In this document: positions 15,705 through 48,665 of the stretch, one piece after another | How the letters are laid out: each line of letters opens with the position of its first letter | Numbering within the stretch: position 1 is the first letter of the stretch | Source of the DNA: Escherichia coli phage phiS | DNA length: 64,000 bases | Sequence record: PP449093.1 | Strand: one strand, 5' to 3' | Notes under the pieces: generated by a model | Seen by the model: only the letters and a program-made list of their open reading frames with translations | Database searches by the model: none | What the model was told of the DNA's origin: nothing | Translations under genes and position numbers: made by a program

Positions 15705-17705
15705 TTATGCTTGGTTGGGTGGACCGATAATTTCGTCAAAATCAGCACCAGTTGCAACAGCCGTGAAGTTCAATAGAATGTAGTTAATCGATTTTGCTGG
15801 TTTGATGAACATACTGGCAACAAATTCGTTACGATCAATTACATCCGGCGTGTTATTCGTGGTGTCGCATTGTACTCGGAAGTCATAAATGCCGCCCAGA
15901 GAGCGAATCGTGCTGAGATATTGCGAAACCTCCATACGGAAGGAAGCGCGAGTAAAGTTATCGTTGTTTTCAAACAGTTTGTATTTGCTTGAATCGCCGA
16001 TATTCTTTTTCAGCATGTTAAACAGACGACGAACGTTAATGCGGTCAAACGGGCTAGGAACAGTCGTAGCGGTTTTATCACCCATCAGGATAAACCCTTC
16101 ACCACCAGCACCGATCACCGGGTTAATTGCGGACTGATACAGACGATCGCGGTGCGCTTTGCGAGGCTCAATTGCCAGTTTAACCACGTTCATGATCTGA
16201 CCACGGTTATAACCTGCCGGACTCATCCACGGCTGGGATACAGCATCAGTACGAGCGCACAGACCAGCAATATCAGCAGCCAACGGAACCCAACGGTTTA
16301 CGTCGTTGTATTTGTCATACTGATATTTGTAGTTACCATCAATAACCGCGTAAGTGGTATTAATGTTCATGTTGTTTTCATTATAGTTTCCTGAACCTTC
16401 GCGCCATGCAATCAGGTTATCAATTGCGGTAGTCACCGGAATATTAACAACAGTGCTACGCGGCGGAGAAACCATTACTAAGCAATCCTGACGCTCATCA
16501 CCGATGGAAACAGCATGTTTCTGTACGGTAGAGAACGCATCGCCTTCGCCAGCACATGCACCAGCGATCAACAGGTTTACGTGAATAGATTCACGTTCAG
16601 CAAACAGATCCCAACCTTGCATCATCGCACCGATGAACGGATCAGCACCAACTCCACCAGTCGTTGCTTCGTTAGCAGAAACACCACCAGCAAGAGAGAT
16701 AATACCACTGAAACCATCTACCCACCCTTGAGCGGTTGCATAGATGTACTGGCTAGAACCACGAGCAAAGAAGTCGTCCATGTAGATAGAATTGCCGTAT
16801 ACGTCTTTATCCCCTTTCAGAGTAGACAGTACATAGGATTCTACCACAACACCATCGCGACGAACAATAAATGCATATTGATTATCATTCTGCGGTGCAT
16901 ATGGAATCAGGTTGCGTGCTGCGGTGCGCTCGCCACCATAAGGATACATGGTCAGATCCGGTGCAGTATTCTTAAACGCACTACGTGCCAGAATTTCAAC
17001 TTCCAGAGAGTTACCAATCTCACCAGCATAGATCGCGCTTACCGCTGGCATGTCATATTTCTTGAGTTTAGTCAAGAAAGTTTGACTTGTGATATTGGCA
17101 CGGGAAGTTTCCAGATCCGTTAAGAGAAGACCGGAATCGGTAACAATTTTAGTTACTGACAGCGCCGCACTACCGTTACCTGACGAAGAAGTGAACTCTG
17201 CCGTCCAACCTCCATCAAGTTCTGGATATACACCGATTGCTTTAGCGTGAGCGATAATTTTACCAGTTGGGATAAATACGCCCTTAACTTTACCATCACC
17301 ATCAACTTTAGTTACTTTACCTGCCGTTTCAATCTCTTGACGGTTATGTTTAATCTTGATGGTATCGCCTACTTTATAGTTTGAACCTTCGTTTGTGATT
17401 TCAAACTCTACGTTACCAGCTAGGGCAGTTGCGTTTTTTGCTTTTTCTTTATTGAGTACACGAACAACACGCAGGTCATTGCCATACTGGAGGAAGTTAG
17501 CCCCGCTCATGAAATAGTCTGCGGTGTTATTATCCGGCTGACCAAATTTATTAACTAATTCAACTTCATTAGTTACTTGAATAATCTGGAAAGCTGGACC
17601 CCATTGGAATTTACCCACCAGTGCCGCGCGACCAGTCGCAGATTGCACAATGGTAGTGGAGAGAGTAGTTTCTTTCGTTTCGAAACCCGGTGATAATAGA
17701 GTCAT
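15705..17705 (-). CDS. 18: tail sheath protein gp18
   Basis: 666 aa; N-terminus MTLLSPG and overall similarity to T4 gp18. Confidence 0.95.
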   Translation of the reverse strand: MTLLSPGFETKETTLSTTIVQSATGRAALVGKFQWGPAFQIIQVTNEVELVNKFGQPDNNTADYFMSGANFLQYGNDLRVVRVLNKEKAKNATALAGNVEFEITNEGSNYKVGDTIKIKHNRQEIETAGKVTKVDGDGKVKGVFIPTGKIIAHAKAIGVYPELDGGWTAEFTSSSGNGSAALSVTKIVTDSGLLLTDLETSRANITSQTFLTKLKKYDMPAVSAIYAGEIGNSLEVEILARSAFKNTAPDLTMYPYGGERTAARNLIPYAPQNDNQYAFIVRRDGVVVESYVLSTLKGDKDVYGNSIYMDDFFARGSSQYIYATAQGWVDGFSGIISLAGGVSANEATTGGVGADPFIGAMMQGWDLFAERESIHVNLLIAGACAGEGDAFSTVQKHAVSIGDERQDCLVMVSPPRSTVVNIPVTTAIDNLIAWREGSGNYNENNMNINTTYAVIDGNYKYQYDKYNDVNRWVPLAADIAGLCARTDAVSQPWMSPAGYNRGQIMNVVKLAIEPRKAHRDRLYQSAINPVIGAGGEGFILMGDKTATTVPSPFDRINVRRLFNMLKKNIGDSSKYKLFENNDNFTRASFRMEVSQYLSTIRSLGGIYDFRVQCDTTNNTPDVIDRNEFVASMFIKPAKSINYILLNFTAVATGADFDEIIGPPNQA

Positions 17706-17736
17706 TAGAATTTCCTCATCTTTTTATGCATTATCG

Positions 17737-21345
<3,609 letters not shown>

Positions 21346-21358
21346 AATAAATTACCTC

Positions 21359-22222
21359 TTAAAATTCTCTTACAATACGTGGACCCGGTGGAGTCGGTGC
21401 AACTGGTATTGGAATATCACTAGAATATGATTCTTTGATAGTTCCGTCCCATTCTTCTTGCTCGACGTCACGTTTAACGACCTCGTGATCCACAGATTCA
21501 AAATTACCGCTAGGATTTAATTCACGAGAATTAGCATGAAAATCAAGATAAATCGTTCTGATTTCCCCCTTAACGTCGGTAGCTGGAGGATAGATAAACC
21601 CGATGAACTCAAACATAATGGTCCACTCAAGACGACGACGAGAAAACTTATCTTCGCCTACCTGTTCATCTGGAGTAATAGAACTAATTGTGACCTGAAT
21701 ATCTCGATCAATCCATACATCATTACCGTGTAGTTCTTTAATCTTACAGTTAAAATGAGGCTGGAAGTAAGGAAGAATCTGTTCAATTATCTGAAACATA
21801 TCATCTTCGTTACGTGTATAAATCCCCAGCTCGAAGGTAAACTTATATGGTACAGGATTATATTGTGTCACACTCCTGATACCATCAGCCGTATATTTTG
21901 GTACTGTCTTATTTGCAATATTTGTTTTAAAGTTCTGGGCGTATGTCATATCAATCAAAGAAAGACACATACGAGGTAAAATAGTTTCTACCTTTGCTAC
22001 GTCTTCCTCGCTTAAGATATTGTTATATTTGTCCAGACTCATCATGAATTTTTCTTTCTTTGCGTAGGTGATAGGAACTTTAATAAAACGCTCACCGTCA
22101 CTACGCACCCTTTTAATTTGTACGCCGGAGAATAAATTACCCAGCAATACAATATATCTTCTAATTGACGAATTATAGTGCCAACCGAACATTTGACCCC
22201 CTTGTTTATGAGTATTTATCAA
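21359..22222 (-). CDS. 15: tail sheath stabilizer / tail completion protein gp15
   Basis: 287 aa; size and synteny. Confidence 0.8.
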
Positions 22223-22959
22223 AAATTAGCAAAAGGTGAACCAGTGCCATTAATAGGATCAAACGGGTCAATAAAATCTTGTCCTTCGCTTCTGAATTGC
22301 TTATCTTCTTTGTACTGATCTAAGTTGATATCTGTTAACCCGTCCAGATTAGTGATCGGTGCAAGGTCCAGATCCGCAAACTCATCAACATTAATTCCCT
22401 CATTGCGTTGTAATTCTGGTCGCAATTCCTCACCGCTATACACGAATTTCTCTGCAATAATTTTACGCATGGCATTTTTGCCAGCCTGAAAAAACGGCTG
22501 ATATGGCTCTACATATGAGATTTCAAATAAATCATTGCTCATAGGAATGTAAAACAAATCACCGGATTTAGGCTCTTGGTTATCTACTTGATGTTTAAAT
22601 AAATTTGGATTTATAGTTATGGTTAACTCATCATTAGCGGTATAACCGAAAGATTGAAAGAAATTGCCAGCACCCTCATACCCATCGAAAGAATTTATGT
22701 ATGCTGCAAACTTCCACGCCTTAGTGAATTTGCTTTGCACGTCCTCCCCAAATATCATATCAGGTTTCACAAATTCTCTCGGTATGTAGTACATCTCGAC
22801 GCCGCGCATTTGTATAGACTCGGCAACCATAATATCGGCTAGAGTTTGTGTATTTGTATGTGAATTGAAATTCACATAAGGATTGAGAATTTCTGTTTGT
22901 CTAGTGTTCTCATAATCCTTCTGTGACTCCAATCTGGCAAATAATGTAGAGTCAAACAT
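22219..22959 (-). CDS. 14: neck protein gp14
   Basis: 246 aa; size and synteny. Confidence 0.8.
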
Positions 22960-23536
22960 AATAAAACTCCTTCCATTTTTCTGCGGTTGACTTTACTCGT
23001 TTCCTCATAGAAGCGGCTGATATCCCATACTTTCTACAACATTCTTGAGTGGTTAAGTATAGAACACCTTCTGCCATAATTTTTCTTGCGCCTTTAAAAT
23101 TTTCCCAATCTCTATTTCTATTTTTTGCCGATTGACTCATTTTATTTTTAGTCTCGTCTGAGTGAGATTCTCTTTTTCGACTGGATGCTTTTTCAGATAT
23201 TTTTCTTCTTGCTTCATTTTTGGTTTCTTCGTCCATGTCATCCCACAAAGAACCTCTATTCACTCCACCCAGAGCAATATTATATGTATCTTCTCTTTCT
23301 ACAAATTCCTTAGTCACTATCTTTTTTTCTGCTAAAGCTAGTTCTTCTAACGTGTTGTGTGTGGAAAGAATAGTTTTTGTGAAGTTCTCTATTCCATACT
23401 TTTTTATTGCTCTTTTAATTCGTTTTCCGCTCCCCCAATAAGAATCCTTTTCTATTGGTTTTCTGGACGTTCTCATACCAACATAGACCATCCCATTTAA
23501 ATTATTTGTTATTTGATATAGATAATAATATGCCAT
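22952..23536 (-). CDS. GIY-YIG homing endonuclease (Seg-like) inserted between genes 13 and 14
   Basis: N-terminal [18 protein letters not shown] core, C-terminal HTH-like region; own promoter. Confidence 0.7.
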
Positions 23537-23564
23537 ATGATTCTCCTTTTTATGTTCTCGTCAG

Positions 23565-23594
23565 ATCATACACTAACGAGAACATATTAGTCAA
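23565..23594 (-). promoter_or_regulatory. early-type promoter TTGACT-18-TATGAT with stem-loop over the -10, driving the GIY-YIG gene
   Basis: Hexamers plus inverted repeat GTTCTCGT/ACGAGAAC; AAAGGAG RBS before ATG. Confidence 0.5.
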
Positions 23595-23603
23595 CACATT
23601 TAA

Positions 23604-24536
23604 TCAAATCATGAGGATGCCGAACGGAGGATCTAATAATTCTAGTTCTTGTCGCAATTTCTCAATGTCGGCTCGTGCTTCTTCAATGATTCGGATACCA
23701 TCAACAGTGACACCACCGGGTAATTGCAGACCTTGATGTTTAGCCATGATGGACCCCCAAACCTCCTTAGTGAAGGCGGTGGCCATATCTTTCACCCAAC
23801 GGTTATTATATGCGCCCTGCTTGTTCTCACTGATCGGTCCCATGCCAGCAACAATCCCGCTTAAACCAGCAGTTGGGTTATCATAAACGGCGCTAATCCC
23901 GCCAGCGGTAGAACATCCTCCCGCATGAGCATAACCAGCAACCGCACCGATCATATCAGGAACGTCTATATAGCTTTTAACATATAATTCAACAACAATG
24001 AGATCACCTTCTCGGAAGTTTCCTGTAATCTTAAGTTGTCCGTTTGCGCTATTATACCAATAATCTGGAAGCGGATTGAGCATATTTTGCATAGTTGCGC
24101 GATAGCTCATAAGCTGTTCGAAATATCCCAGATCACCGCCCATTGCATTTGGACCATAAAATTTACTACAGCCAGATCCTAAACCGCCATTTACACCCGC
24201 TAAACCCAACAGAAAGTCAGTAAACCACGGATAAACGGCAGTGCCATCCATCGTAGCCGCGCTACCTACGTTTGTTCGAATTATTTTAGTTACTGCGAAT
24301 ACTCCAGAATCGCTTAAATCAAATACCCCGTGTTGCGCTTGCTCTGCACTAACACGAAATACTTTATATCCTTTATTCACACCATCGAAATGATATTCCC
24401 CATAGAGTTCTAGTGCTCTCTGAATACAATCGTAAATCTGGTCTTCTGTGACTTCTACGTTAATTACTGGTGCGCCTAAACGACGCAGAATAGCGTCTTT
24501 TAATTCTCTTGGGTTATTGGTTACATATCCTGACAT
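23604..24536 (-). CDS. 13: neck protein gp13
   Basis: 310 aa; size and synteny. Confidence 0.8.
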
Positions 24537-24582
24537 AATATCACCTATAAACGGAAAAGGGGCTTAACGCCCCTTTAATTTC

Positions 24583-26352
24583 TTATACCGGAGAAATTCC
24601 AAAGAGGAACTCTTTAATTTGTAGCTGTTGCGCTAATGCTTCTTCGGATACGCCCTTAATGCGAATATCGATCCGGTCGCCCTTTTCAATATTTAGGAAA
24701 GCACTGGTAGAATAGCTAATTAAATCATCAGGTCCATAATGACCATTTCGTACCTCATGTACAATCAGACCATTTTTAGCAATACCGACTACGAAAGTAG
24801 CGTTATGTGCCGCATTTACAGAACAACGGAAATCACAACGGAATAAGCCTTTGTCGTTAACCGTAACAAGAGATTCGCTCTTAACCATTCCACGCGCAGG
24901 AACTTCTTCGGTCATATCGTTTAGCGGGATTCCTTTGTATTGATCTTGTCCGTCGAGAGTAATATCAATCTGAGCGGTGTTTTTAAATGCACCAGCCGCC
25001 CATGCGACCTGAACCCATTCCCCGTGCTTACGTAGATAATGGAAACCATCATCAGGAACGTCTGTTACCTTGCTTGCATTTGATGTGCTCAATTCCTTAA
25101 CAGTTTTCACGATCCCATCTTGTTCAAGCTGCGTGCTTCCTTCTGGATTGCCGTACATGTCGCTTGACAGCTTAATAACCCCGGCGGTTAGACCGGAATC
25201 TCGATCTCCGATCATTTGCTCGATATCCTGTACGCTAGCTTCTAGTCGTCCCTGTGTATTTTCTACAATTTTTAGACGACCTGCGATAGTATGACGCTCA
25301 CTATCAGTACCAACTGTGTTAGAGATTCGTGCAACCTCACCACGTAGACCATCAGCACCACTAACACCGACAATAGATTTAAGATCTACAAATTCCCGTT
25401 CTTGATTAGTCAATCGATAATCAATACTTCCAGCGGCTTGAGGACTGCCAATCGTATTTTCCAGAAGAGTTAAACGAGGACGGATACCAGCGTCAACCCC
25501 GTTGACTTCATCATTAAGCTGTGTATAATCAGATTGTAGCTTAGTTACTTTAGTACCGATATCAGGAATTGATTCAAATAGAATCGCTTTCTTTACTTCC
25601 TGAACTTCGTTTGATATACTAGCGATATTGCGAGTATTTGTGCGAAGACGAAGATAAACATTGTCCTGTGTTGCTAGTGATGTGTCGCCTAGCTCGCTTC
25701 GCATTTTGTTAACTTGTTCTGTTAGCTCTCCAACGTCAGAATCTTGCCAGTCGTTTTCTAGTTGGCGGATTCGCTGACCGTGGTTGTTTAATGCTTCCGT
25801 ATTCTGGATAACTCGATATTTGATACCGGAACCGGAACTACCCGGATCTGGAGAGCCGTTGATATTGAAGTTAGGGAAAGCGCCCAATTCTTGTTTGATG
25901 AAAGAAATATCATCATATATTGTTCGTGTACTCGGATCTGCTGCCGGACGAACACCAATTTTCTTTCCTGTCTCTGCCAGTTCATCTACTGTGGTTTGTA
26001 ATGTCCTTGAAGTTTCTCCTAAATTTTCTTCTACAGACTCAACCTTTGAAATAGTTTGATTGACAATATCAATAATACTACCATCAGCAACCGCGCCTAA
26101 AGTAGTTTTAATATCATTAACTGCTGTAACAACTTCGTTAACTTTTGTTACCGTTGTCTTAGAATTTTCATCCAGACGAACAATATTTTCTTGAATAGCA
26201 TAAGGGGCGCGGTTAAGCGTCCCCTCATGTCCTGTTTCTGTGGTTGCTGCGCTTAGACATTCACCATTTTTAATCCAGCTAATAGAATGCTGTCCCTCTC
26301 CAGGGACACCATCGACGTTAGGGATCTTTCGAATGTTTAACTGTTCGATCAT
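24583..26352 (-). CDS. wac: fibritin (whisker) with extended C-terminal domain
   Basis: N-terminus similar to T4 Wac (DG.P.EGQ..ISWIKNGE); coiled-coil body; foldon-like motif (DGFHYLRKHGEWV) followed by an extra 140 aa. Confidence 0.8.
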   Translation of the reverse strand: MIEQLNIRKIPNVDGVPGEGQHSISWIKNGECLSAATTETGHEGTLNRAPYAIQENIVRLDENSKTTVTKVNEVVTAVNDIKTTLGAVADGSIIDIVNQTISKVESVEENLGETSRTLQTTVDELAETGKKIGVRPAADPSTRTIYDDISFIKQELGAFPNFNINGSPDPGSSGSGIKYRVIQNTEALNNHGQRIRQLENDWQDSDVGELTEQVNKMRSELGDTSLATQDNVYLRLRTNTRNIASISNEVQEVKKAILFESIPDIGTKVTKLQSDYTQLNDEVNGVDAGIRPRLTLLENTIGSPQAAGSIDYRLTNQEREFVDLKSIVGVSGADGLRGEVARISNTVGTDSERHTIAGRLKIVENTQGRLEASVQDIEQMIGDRDSGLTAGVIKLSSDMYGNPEGSTQLEQDGIVKTVKELSTSNASKVTDVPDDGFHYLRKHGEWVQVAWAAGAFKNTAQIDITLDGQDQYKGIPLNDMTEEVPARGMVKSESLVTVNDKGLFRCDFRCSVNAAHNATFVVGIAKNGLIVHEVRNGHYGPDDLISYSTSAFLNIEKGDRIDIRIKGVSEEALAQQLQIKEFLFGISPV

Positions 26353-31141: not shown

Positions 31142-31981
31142 TTAAATGTCAAACAAATCTGAGAGCGTCCCAGACTCGCTTTCCTGTTTCGGTAAGGTAA
31201 TATCCTTACTTTCTTCTATTTGTTCGTTAGGACGTGATTTAGGCGCTTCTACGGCTTCTTTCTCGTAATACCGAACCTCAACCACTTCTGTTAAAACGTT
31301 GGTACTATGCCATTCATCGCGATAGATTGATGTATCGATCCCGCATCCGGCGTAAGTCACCAAACCAGTTTGTTTGCTCCATTTTAGATATTTATTAGAC
31401 TTCACTGATTCATCATAATAAGGTCTGCCGGAATAAGCAAACCCAGCGGAACTAGCAGGAACAATAAAATAACCTACATCGGCAAACTTCTGGCCTAACG
31501 TCATAACCTTAAATTCAAACTCACCGCCAGTATATTCAAATACATCCTTTGTGTCTGTAGTATTGATTTTACCGAAAGGTGGATTGCTGATCACCACATC
31601 GAATTTTTCGTTTGACTCAAATTCGAATACATCGCTGGTGATCCATTCTGCCTCCGGTAATAGTCGCTTGCCAATCAGCGCAAATTCTGGATTGAGTTCG
31701 ACGCATACGATCTTTTCTGGCTTACAACGATGTAACATACAAAAAGATAAGCGACCGATCCCCGCACAAAGATCTAATACTTTTCCGGTGCAATATGCAT
31801 CAATGGTAAAATCCCAGGCAAGCCATTCTGGGGTAAAGAATGCACCGGAACCACCTAGTCCATCGCCATGATAGTTGTTATAGCAAAATTCTTTTTCTTC
31901 AAATGTCAATGGACGATCTGAATTAATCAACTCCATCACCCGATCGTGTAATTTTTGTTCTTGTTTAGAAAGTCGTGCCAT
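31142..31981 (-). CDS. gamma-class N6-adenine DNA methyltransferase (NPPF)
   Basis: FFTPEW then motif I VLDLCAGIG then motif IV NPPFG (order I before IV); DNA versus RNA target not provable from sequence. Confidence 0.65.
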   Translation of the reverse strand: MARLSKQEQKLHDRVMELINSDRPLTFEEKEFCYNNYHGDGLGGSGAFFTPEWLAWDFTIDAYCTGKVLDLCAGIGRLSFCMLHRCKPEKIVCVELNPEFALIGKRLLPEAEWITSDVFEFESNEKFDVVISNPPFGKINTTDTKDVFEYTGGEFEFKVMTLGQKFADVGYFIVPASSAGFAYSGRPYYDESVKSNKYLKWSKQTGLVTYAGCGIDTSIYRDEWHSTNVLTEVVEVRYYEKEAVEAPKSRPNEQIEESKDITLPKQESESGTLSDLFDI

Positions 31982-32313
31982 TATTTAACCTTTGCTGTGA
32001 CGGTAACGCTATGTCCCAAATAAACATGAGACATAAAGAACACAAAGTTTTTAAATTGCGGATTCTTACGAATCCATCGTTTCAATTTTCGAATGCAAGT
32101 TATACGATGGTCATAATTAGAATAACTAAATTCAATACCCTGTTTCATCATCTCGTGCATTTCTTCGTATGTGTGCCATTGGTTATCATGTTTACAAAAC
32201 CAATGAGTACCATAGAGTTTAGGATCTTGTGCACGTAGACCATAGTAATGCTTTTGCATTGGGAACTTAGCTTTATTCATTGTGTAGTGCAATTTAATAT
32301 TTACGCGTGCCAT
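31981..32313 (-). CDS. hypothetical protein (110 aa) co-transcribed with methyltransferase
   Basis: ATGA-type overlap with downstream MTase ORF. Confidence 0.45.
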   Translation of the reverse strand: MARVNIKLHYTMNKAKFPMQKHYYGLRAQDPKLYGTHWFCKHDNQWHTYEEMHEMMKQGIEFSYSNYDHRITCIRKLKRWIRKNPQFKNFVFFMSHVYLGHSVTVTAKVK

Positions 32314-32558
32314 TTTCTATTACTCCACATACCGAAAGTTGGATTATACACAAAATAGATAGCTTCGTCGATAGTCTTGAATCGTTTAGTGTCATTCATG
32401 AAGTTGATACCCTCCCATAGTTCATCGGTGTAATCGGCTAATGATGAATGAGTATGATCGATGATCTCTCCGATCTTTTCACCGTTCGCGATCACATCCC
32501 AACCGCAAGGGGATACCTGAATTGCTTCACAATTATCTGTAAATTTACGACGTGCCAT
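32301..32558 (-). CDS. hypothetical protein (85 aa), first gene of methyltransferase cassette
   Basis: ATG preceded by GGAGGA RBS and early-type promoter. Confidence 0.45.
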   Translation of the reverse strand: MARRKFTDNCEAIQVSPCGWDVIANGEKIGEIIDHTHSSLADYTDELWEGINFMNDTKRFKTIDEAIYFVYNPTFGMWSNRKWHA

Positions 32559-32587
32559 AATTTATCCTCCGTTGTTTAGATGTGTGT

Positions 32588-32615
32588 ATTATACCTTACC
32601 AAATAAGATTGTCAA
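32588..32615 (-). promoter_or_regulatory. early-type promoter TTGACA-16-TATAAT with conserved acacacatc leader, driving the methyltransferase cassette
   Basis: Same architecture as the early-region promoter cassettes; lies between the gene 8 terminator and ORF 32301..32558. Confidence 0.55.
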
Positions 32616-32625
32616 CACCAAAAAT

Positions 32626-48636: not shown

Positions 48637-48665
48637 TTGACAGGGGAGGATAACTCCCCTACAAT
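48637..48665 (+). promoter_or_regulatory. early promoter cassette P4 (TTGACA-17-TACAAT, palindromic spacer GGGGAG..CTCCCC)
   Basis: Spacer is a perfect inverted repeat. Confidence 0.55.

Follow-up and report, generated by a model that had tools for sequence, protein, structure and literature searches.

A Seg-like GIY-YIG homing endonuclease gene has probably colonized the gene 13/14 junction of phage phiS and a few other RB49-like phages

We analyzed a 64,000-nucleotide (nt) stretch of Escherichia coli phage phiS (sequence record PP449093.1), hereafter the window, in which an open reading frame (ORF) of 194 amino acids (aa) lies between the neck genes 13 and 14. Megablast placed the phage in the genus Krischvirus, as an RB49-like, T4-type coliphage. 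Our favored reading, to which we give a probability of roughly 75%, is that a free-standing Seg-like GIY-YIG homing endonuclease gene colonized the 13/14 junction of some RB49-like phages by the homing mechanism proposed below. The gene, its family, the type of promoter cassette that precedes it and the mechanism of homing are already known, and the gene has been annotated in phage Phi1 since that genome was deposited. Added here are a correction of its presumed orthology to T4 segC, a survey of junction occupancy, evidence from the divergence of the flanks, and a prediction of the nuclease target; these are useful rather than surprising.

A preliminary description of this DNA had placed a GIY-YIG protein of this length between genes 13 and 14, and had stated that the two genes are adjacent in T4. 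Both statements held. The ORF is read from 23536 to 22952 within a late-gene block on the minus strand, Pfam, PHROG and the predicted fold agree on its family, and in T4 only 1 nt lies between the two genes. In phiS, gene 13 and gene 14 are each complete on either side of the ORF, which is thus free-standing and intergenic. In RB49, pEJ01 and KMB43 the junction is empty: 36 bp, containing the hairpin GGGGGAGTATTCCCCC, separate the stop codon of gene 13 from the ATG of gene 14. In the window, 644 bp stand in place of the RB49-type gap sequence, beginning 2 nt past the gene 13 stop. At the opposite end, the endonuclease stop codon overlaps the ATG of gene 14. Because the last 8 nt of the ORF (ATGTTTGA, 22952–22959) also begin gene 14, whose Shine-Dalgarno (SD) sequence AAGGAG sits within the 3' end of the ORF, the unit is not fully self-contained. 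The earlier proposal of a self-contained mobile unit therefore survives in part: presence is sporadic and the flanks diverge as homing with co-conversion predicts, but at its 3' end the unit merges into the translation start of gene 14.

The label on the homologue in phage G37-3, a group I intron-encoded endonuclease, was ruled out for phiS, since the flanking genes are complete and no Rfam family (hidden RNA element or group I intron) matched at an expectation value (E) <= 1 across 22000–24700. Plus-strand ORFs of 42–93 aa overlap the endonuclease ORF; by eye, they are AT-rich and of low complexity.

The translated ORF matched Pfam SegE_GIY-YIG with E 7.9e-7 (29.8 bits against a cut-off of 25), and PHROG 314, 'homing endonuclease', with E 4.7e-45. 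An AlphaFold2 model built on 55 sequences had predicted local distance difference test (pLDDT) values of 96–98 for residues 1–95, about 86–90 for two long helices (103–155), and 44–76 for the last 40 residues; the helices of the C-terminal half span 103–119, 127–155, 163–170 and 174–192. When the model was compared with the PDB by Foldseek, the catalytic domain of I-TevI (1mk0, 1ln0) gave the sole meaningful matches (probability 1.00, template modeling score 0.62–0.64). An hhalign alignment to I-TevI (probability 94%) placed Y7, Y18, E70 and N86 on I-TevI Y6, Y17, E75 and N90. Across homologue alignments of 55 and 61 sequences, E70 and N86 were invariant, Y7 was invariant or nearly so, and Y18 was nearly invariant (>=90%).

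For the C-terminal half, residues 110–192 aligned by phmmer to the I-TevI DNA-binding domain (1i3j, E 4.4e-4), including a NUMOD3-type helix (HSDxTKxK) and a C-terminal KW..FY motif. The Pfam I-TevI_DNA-bd family matched with E 6e-4 (20 bits, under its cut-off of 27), and NUMOD3 (PF07460) is present in many homologues. These matches and the model suggest an I-TevI-like architecture, in which a nuclease domain is followed by helical DNA-binding repeats and then a helix-turn-helix (HTH); support for the DNA-binding module is moderate. The HTH-like C-terminal region of the preliminary description is recovered by the 1i3j alignment but is weakly supported, with a low pLDDT in that region and a sub-threshold Pfam score.

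Next, we surveyed the distribution of the gene. A 241-nt probe spanning the empty RB49 junction matched 57 Krischvirus records, and the junction was contiguous and empty in 41 of them and interrupted in 16. At >=95% identity the protein was found only in kvi, Phi1 and ECD7 (five records); all other matches were below 60%. In Phi1 the same gene is annotated as 'SegC homing endonuclease' (phi1p149.1, ABR24660.1), and the copies in ECD7 and kvi are likewise about 99–99.5% identical. The gene occurs in three named species, and one of its carriers, kvi, is classed in the same species as RB49 and kaaroe, both of which lack it. Comparison with relatives had been suggested as a check on the insertion, and the gene proved to be absent from most of them rather than universal. 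Arbiol et al. 2010 list it as one of seven Phi1-specific genes missing from RB49 (PMC2839356); beyond that paper, we found nothing specific in the literature on a 13/14 endonuclease locus in Krischvirus.

The same junction holds other genes in other phages (Table 1), and it is a recurrent landing site. Krischvirus has at least three other occupant types, all encoding modular Seg/I-TevI-like proteins, and the other 13/14 occupants are only 33–49% identical to the phiS protein. The pattern obtained with the junction probe suggests that Makalu001, PHB13, MIZ4 and MIZ5 carry the Makalu002 type. In E26, the annotated 311-aa coding sequence starts upstream of its own promoter and hairpin (L003 3340–3415); a start at the ATG after the SD sequence (MNHYVYKITN...), giving 298 aa, is more likely.

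The four carriers appear to share a young element. The 644-bp insert of phiS differs from those of the other carriers at 2–5 positions, and from that of Phi1 at three, including a 1-nt indel in an A run between the hairpin and the SD sequence. The variants among carriers are R25K, D127E, N141K, two silent changes and this A-run indel; promoter and hairpin are the same, and each of the four phages has the full ORF of 194 aa. The whole 2.6-kb query is matched by Phi1, ECD7 and kvi at 97.5–97.9%. When the insert is taken together with the adjoining 50 nt of gene 13 and 150 nt of gene 14, the carriers differ by 0.1–0.6%, compared with 1.7–2.9% over the rest of genes 13–16 (p 0.008 to 1e-7 against the insert region). 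This difference points to an element younger than the backbones that carry it.

This bears on the possibility that the gene is a stranded and immobile remnant, kept since its deletion would remove the ribosome-binding and start context of gene 14 together with the hairpin after gene 13. The embedding of the gene 14 SD sequence and ATG in the 3' end of the ORF fits such an account, as does the hairpin that follows gene 13 in every version of the locus, empty or occupied, which suggests a function for the host genes that any insert must supply; embedding of host expression signals is known to favor the retention of endonuclease genes (PMC2988022). However, the ORF is full-length, with Y7, Y18, E70 and N86 intact in four phages, and the element is nearly the same on backbones 2–3% apart, in three named species, which favors recent horizontal spread over long vertical inheritance. 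We consider a remnant improbable.

In T4, homing without an intron is an established property of SegA, B, C, E, F and G. The nuclease cuts an allele that lacks the gene, often some way from the site of insertion; repair then carries over the gene along with neighboring markers, and the donor escapes cleavage because its target sequence differs (PMC2988022). We compared the genes flanking the insert with those of phages with an empty site. In gene 14, 109 of the first 450 nt differ from RB49 (24%), whereas only 7 of the 291 nt beyond do so (about 2%; Fisher p 2e-18), and the divergence drops sharply at nt 450. Among the differing codons of this tract, 75 are synonymous and 15 are nonsynonymous. 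Divergence is not raised on the gene 13 side: the final 50 nt match RB49, pEJ01 and KMB43 without a mismatch, and the overall figure is about 2.7%. Within the first 150 nt of gene 14, the carriers have one and the same sequence in all four phages. Taken together, the pattern in the flanks fits intronless homing with one-sided co-conversion.

The tract can be narrowed using pEJ01, which has an empty site and a mosaic gene 14: nt 1–135 are RB49-like, with 34 differences from the window, and nt 136–450 are window-like. Since pEJ01 is window-like from nt 136, the block strictly linked to the insert is nt 1–135 of gene 14. Judged by this linkage, nt 1–135 are the best candidate for holding the changes that would make a carrier resistant to its own nuclease. 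The mosaic in pEJ01 could record either a loss of the insert or an ordinary crossover within the divergent tract. The other occupants have a different flank pattern. In Makalu002 and KFS-EC, 14 of the last 50 nt of gene 13 differ from the RB49-like sequence of the window, and in E26 the last ~400 nt of gene 13 have diverged; in all three, gene 14 is RB49-like. The Makalu002 gene, inserted on the gene 13 side of the RB49 hairpin, accompanies a recoded end of gene 13, while the phiS insert accompanies a recoded gene 14.

Upstream of the ORF, the preliminary description had reported TTGACT-18-TATGAT, an AAAGGAG ribosome-binding site and an overlapping 8-bp inverted repeat, in the style of the cassettes of the early region. 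The promoter hexamers and the ribosome-binding site are all present on the minus strand (Table 1), and the hexamers match 10 of 12 consensus positions. The repeat is real and does overlap the promoter, but it is longer than had been reported: GTTCTCGT/ACGAGAAC form 10 perfect bp, and as RNA the stem reaches 14 bp with one G-U pair, 23551–23564 pairing with 23573–23586. The 51-nt hairpin segment folds at -19.9 kcal/mol (z -6.3), and none of 200 shuffled sequences was as stable. Of the two arms of the hairpin, the 5' one falls between the promoter hexamers and the 3' one spans the position where transcription probably begins. A canonical intrinsic terminator was considered for this hairpin and rejected, as it is followed by an A run instead of a T/U run and was unlisted by the terminator scan.

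The cassette is a member of the published family of promoter early stem-loop (PeSL) elements, known from Phi1 and RB49 (Arbiol et al. 2010; PMC2839356). Five subclasses of PeSL have been described, one of which has a stem overlapping the -10; strong promoter activity was shown for one PeSL, and terminator activity for the stem-loop of another, in Phi1/RB49 (PMC2839356). The endonuclease cassette likewise has a sigma-70-type promoter and a stem-loop overlapping the -10, followed by the SD sequence and the start codon. It differs in that it lies in a conserved block of virion genes on the late-gene strand rather than in a hyperplastic region, and in that its stem is AT-rich, not polyG/polyC. A scan of the whole window found promoter-plus-hairpin units in the early region, on the plus strand, at 48637, 49340, 56502, 60300 and 63634. 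The endonuclease cassette aligns with these five, with GTGTTGAC in common around the -35, and its SD string GGAGAATCA is also present in those at 48637 and 60300. The likeness to the early region that had been pointed out is therefore one of style and partly of sequence.

A hairpin directly follows gene 13 in each version of the locus that was folded, with -13.3 kcal/mol in RB49, -14.1 in Makalu002, -19.9 in the window and -21.1 in E26. In E26 the stem is kept through two double (compensatory) changes at the outer pairs, as judged by eye. Since every version of the locus has a hairpin after gene 13 and that of E26 has compensatory changes, the hairpin is probably functional, serving either the endonuclease, by translational gating, or the host genes, through message stability or the stoichiometry of genes 13 and 14.

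Because the inverted repeat overlaps the gene's own promoter and the C-terminal half of the protein is homologous to the I-TevI DNA-binding domain, we weighed whether the protein is mainly a DNA-binding regulator, for example an autorepressor like I-TevI, or else a general nuclease against competitors. However, the promoter cassette has no similarity to the region of the empty RB49 site (-250 to +500), for which the best local score was 16 and the shuffle mean 19.1, and inverted repeats of this style are common to dozens of unrelated PeSLs. A mainly regulatory or anti-competitor role is very improbable.

Another account dispenses with the nuclease. Here the gene moves by homologous recombination at promoter/stem-loop cassettes, as a case of PeSL-mediated modular shuffling (Arbiol et al. 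2010), and its own nuclease is irrelevant or inactive. The GTGTTGAC and GGAGAATCA strings that the upstream cassette shares with other PeSLs of the phage are expected under shuffling, and most of the genes that differ between Phi1 and RB49 are associated with a nearby PeSL (PMC2839356). The E26 locus also looks like a cassette exchange: its endonuclease gene is a different one (about 39% aa identity), while its promoter and hairpin (TTTACA-17-TATAAT) are homologous, and about 37 of the last 39 nt of its insert match the end of the window insert by eye. On the other hand, no second promoter/stem-loop was found downstream of the endonuclease ORF, which leads straight into gene 14. As there is only one PeSL and the 3' side is fused to gene 14, excision as a two-PeSL mini-circle is not available. 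In addition, at the empty RB49 site a hairpin is present but a promoter that could serve as a recombination partner is missing, a one-sided divergent tract of 450 nt in an essential gene is predicted by break repair and not by cassette recombination, and the aligned catalytic residues are intact. We regard shuffling without a role for the nuclease as unlikely.

Several observations weigh against an active homing endonuclease with its own early promoter. The I-TevI catalytic residue Arg27 falls in an alignment gap, and the position after YVG, usually His in the Seg family and so in T4 SegC, SegD and SegE, is Arg22 in the phiS protein; Arg22 is at most a putative counterpart, and a full catalytic set is presumptive. 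The HTH assignment depends on E values near 5e-4 and on the low-confidence part of the model. Among the carriers, the ORFs have five substitutions, three nonsynonymous and two synonymous, too few to judge selection on the protein. The divergent block of gene 14 might be an old allele brought in by recombination without any part played by the nuclease, and pEJ01 carries part of it. Lastly, the promoter has a spacer of 18 nt and two non-consensus bases, and in 5.2 kb we found 16 promoter-like sites where 15.7 were expected, so a match of this kind is by itself at the level of chance. As the consensus scan alone does no better than chance, the promoter draws its credibility from its context: its position, its conservation in all four carriers, the homologous cassette of E26 and the likeness to the other cassettes of the window.

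Returning to homing as the favored reading, we infer the mechanism from established Seg and I-TevI biology, and this applies equally to cleavage, target position, promoter timing and the role of the hairpin. Early in infection, host RNA polymerase would transcribe the gene from its own sigma-70-type PeSL promoter; early expression is probable because this is the only recognizable promoter. The transcript would start about 7 nt past the -10, within the 3' arm of the hairpin. Since it starts inside the stem, its leader would be unstructured and the strong SD sequence free. The NUMOD3 helices and the HTH of the protein would then anchor it on a specific sequence in the genome of a co-infecting relative without the gene, and the tethered GIY-YIG domain would make a double-strand break in or near the 13/14 gap or at the 5' end of gene 14. 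We infer a target within the 13/14 gap or the 5' part of gene 14, because no other stretch is lost or recoded in carriers while being conserved among phages with an empty site. Phage recombination would repair the break from the carrier genome, thereby copying the insert of 644 bp together with gene 14 sequence on one side only. The carrier itself would be immune, as the gap sequence of the empty site is gone and the first ~135–450 nt of gene 14 are densely recoded, mostly synonymously.

Later in infection, the gene would be read through as part of a long late mRNA reaching genes 14–17, and the 14-bp hairpin would form 5 nt upstream of the SD sequence, where it may damp translation of the endonuclease or stabilize the gene 13 message. 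The late promoter TATAAATA was not found on the minus strand between 31094 and 17744, a search that did not extend to variant late promoters. Given the lack of TATAAATA in this interval, genes 14–17 probably rely on read-through across the insert.

A wider view can be offered tentatively. The 13/14 junction of T4-type phages might be a shared docking site, at which several unrelated or distantly related endonuclease genes compete, replacing one another by recombination at conserved ends, these being the promoter and hairpin upstream and the translation start of gene 14 downstream. Each occupant would gain protection from a different recoded flank, which is gene 14 in the phiS type but gene 13 in those of E26 and Makalu. 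The early PeSL promoter of the occupant in RB49-like phages would be coupled to a hairpin switch, allowing early expression from an unstructured leader and silencing the gene late, when the hairpin forms in the read-through mRNA. This view is possible, yet more doubtful than not.

We then compared the phiS gene with known systems. The name segC, used in the Phi1 and ECD7 records, was tested as a statement of orthology with T4 segC and rejected, as position, length and score ranking all differ. T4 segC lies at 80196–80618, between 5.1 and 5.3, and encodes 140 aa without a counterpart of the C-terminal HTH. Against the phiS protein, SegC scored 80.9 bits (42% identity over 137 aa), SegD 94.7 bits and SegE 76.3 bits. 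The segC name is misleading, a label taken from a best BLAST match, and 'Seg-like' is accurate. The GIY-YIG domain is 34–42% identical to those of SegC, SegD and SegE. As with the T4 seg genes, the phiS gene is intergenic and free-standing, has the orientation of its neighbors, overlaps or embeds their expression signals, and has a flank pattern that fits co-conversion. The sole recognizable promoter of the phiS gene differs in being of an early sigma-70 type. In T4, endonuclease-specific promoters are middle or late, none of the 15 homing endonuclease genes has an early one, and several are promoterless (PMC2988022). With I-TevI, the phiS protein shares an N-terminal GIY-YIG domain, a linker, a NUMOD3-type helix and a C-terminal HTH with KW..FY. 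The two differ in that the phiS gene is not intron-encoded and that the helix carrying Arg27 in I-TevI is deleted in the Seg family; no zinc finger was evident in the linker of the phiS protein.

Table 1. Features of the 13/14 locus of phiS, its neighboring genes, and occupants of the same junction in other phages. Positions are those of the window unless a locus (L) is named.
Feature	Position	Strand	Basis or description
Seg-like GIY-YIG homing endonuclease gene, free-standing, 194 aa	22952–23536 (ATG at 23536)	minus	Pfam, PHROG 314, near-identical annotated copies
GIY-YIG catalytic domain, aa 1–95	23252–23536	minus	AlphaFold2, Foldseek, hhalign
DNA-binding half, aa ~100–194: two NUMOD3-like helices, then HTH ending KWKEFYYV	22955–23239	minus	phmmer, Pfam, AlphaFold2
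Intergenic PeSL-type cassette, replacing the 36-bp RB49 gap and GGGGGAGTATTCCCCC hairpin	23537–23603	minus	Alignment with Phi1, RB49, E26 and window cassettes
-35 hexamer TTGACT	23594–23589	minus	Sequence
-10 hexamer TATGAT, 18-nt spacer, in hairpin loop	23570–23565	minus	Sequence
Hairpin, 14-bp stem (one G-U), 8-nt loop	23551–23586	minus	RNA fold
SD sequence AAAGGAG, six nt before ATG	23549–23543	minus	Sequence
Divergent tract, gene 14 nt 1–450	22510–22959	minus	Comparison with RB49
Minimal carrier-specific block, gene 14 nt 1–135	22825–22959	minus	Comparison with RB49, pEJ01
wac (fibritin)	24583–26352	minus	Pfam Fibritin_C
Gene 13 (neck protein / head-tail adaptor Ad2), upstream neighbor	23604–24536	minus	PHROG 211 E 4.9e-40; gp13 in Phi1 and RB49 annotation
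Gene 14 (neck protein / head closure Hc2)	22219–22959	minus	Pfam T4_neck-protein E 7e-101
Gene 15	21359–22222	minus	Pfam T4-gp15_tss
Gene 16	20848–21345	minus	Gene order
E26 occupant	L003 2453–3388		GIY-YIG/NUMOD3, 298–311 aa
Makalu002 / KFS-EC occupant	L004 2497–3312 (Makalu002); L010 (KFS-EC)		GIY-YIG/NUMOD3/I-TevI-DBD, 271 aa
G37-3 and G5211 occupant	L005 2453–3097 (G37-3)		214 aa
Pu-Krd-SF6 occupant (Straboviridae, outside Krischvirus)	L012 877–1689		HNH gene
Gaprivervirus RZ occupant (Straboviridae, outside Krischvirus)	L013 875–1510		211 aa, annotated 'homing endonuclease', no Pfam match

Other features of the late-gene block were observed beside the endonuclease locus. Gene 17 (large terminase) consists of two overlapping ORFs on the minus strand (17740–20851), split at an intein-like site. 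The first (19100–20851) encodes the N-terminal ATPase up to ...IDE, followed by Cys1 and a short intein-N-like stretch, and continues in frame into a region resembling a zinc ribbon and an endonuclease domain of PD-(D/E)XK/TnsA-N-like type. The second (17740–19119) begins with about 106 residues ending ...VESHN|C, and the Terminase_6N profile resumes at its position 107, exactly where the first ORF stopped. The same two-ORF layout is found at 95–97% identity in kaaroe, vB_Eco_SAP, TB34, G2494 and JK32, and since five other phages share it, the split is not a sequencing error. By this organization, gene 17 carries an apparent split intein. Like AceL-TerL and GOS-TerL, atypical split inteins known from metagenomes (PMC11766414), it combines a short N-fragment with a C-fragment some 105 aa long, has Cys1/Cys+1 and lies in TerL. 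This arrangement may be more interesting than the 13/14 endonuclease.

The gene 17 arrangement also distinguishes the genome around the insert from those of the other carriers, as phiS is a different mosaic. The 13/14 insert is common to Phi1, where gene 17 is uninterrupted, and to ECD7 and kvi, where gene 17 is annotated as one long ORF of 2817 nt; the two-ORF gene 17 is common to kaaroe, SAP and TB34, all three with an empty 13/14 junction. Over the whole stretch 17700–24600, none of the phages in the collection matched in full. Because the insert and the form of gene 17 are shared with different sets of phages, phiS is a new mosaic of known modules.

In wac (24583–26100), about 24% of aligned columns differ from Phi1 or kvi, against 2–3% in neighboring genes, and Phi1, ECD7 and kvi are much closer to one another than to the window; the divergence suggests that phiS has a different wac allele. 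The late-gene strand has another early-type promoter of consensus sequence, TTGACA-16-TATAAT at 32615, with an SD sequence and a start codon after it (31142–32620, minus strand). This promoter precedes ORFs of 85, 110 and 279 aa, the last of which has an NPPFGK motif typical of N6-adenine methyltransferases. From this layout, 31142–32620 looks like another cassette inserted within the virion-gene block.

In conclusion, these results leave current understanding unchanged. Read in this way, the 13/14 locus is a clean natural example of intronless homing in RB49-like phages. Public genomes suffice to see that the gene is present in some phages and absent from others, that divergence in an essential neck gene is confined to one side with a sharp boundary, and that several rival endonuclease genes use one 36-bp gap.

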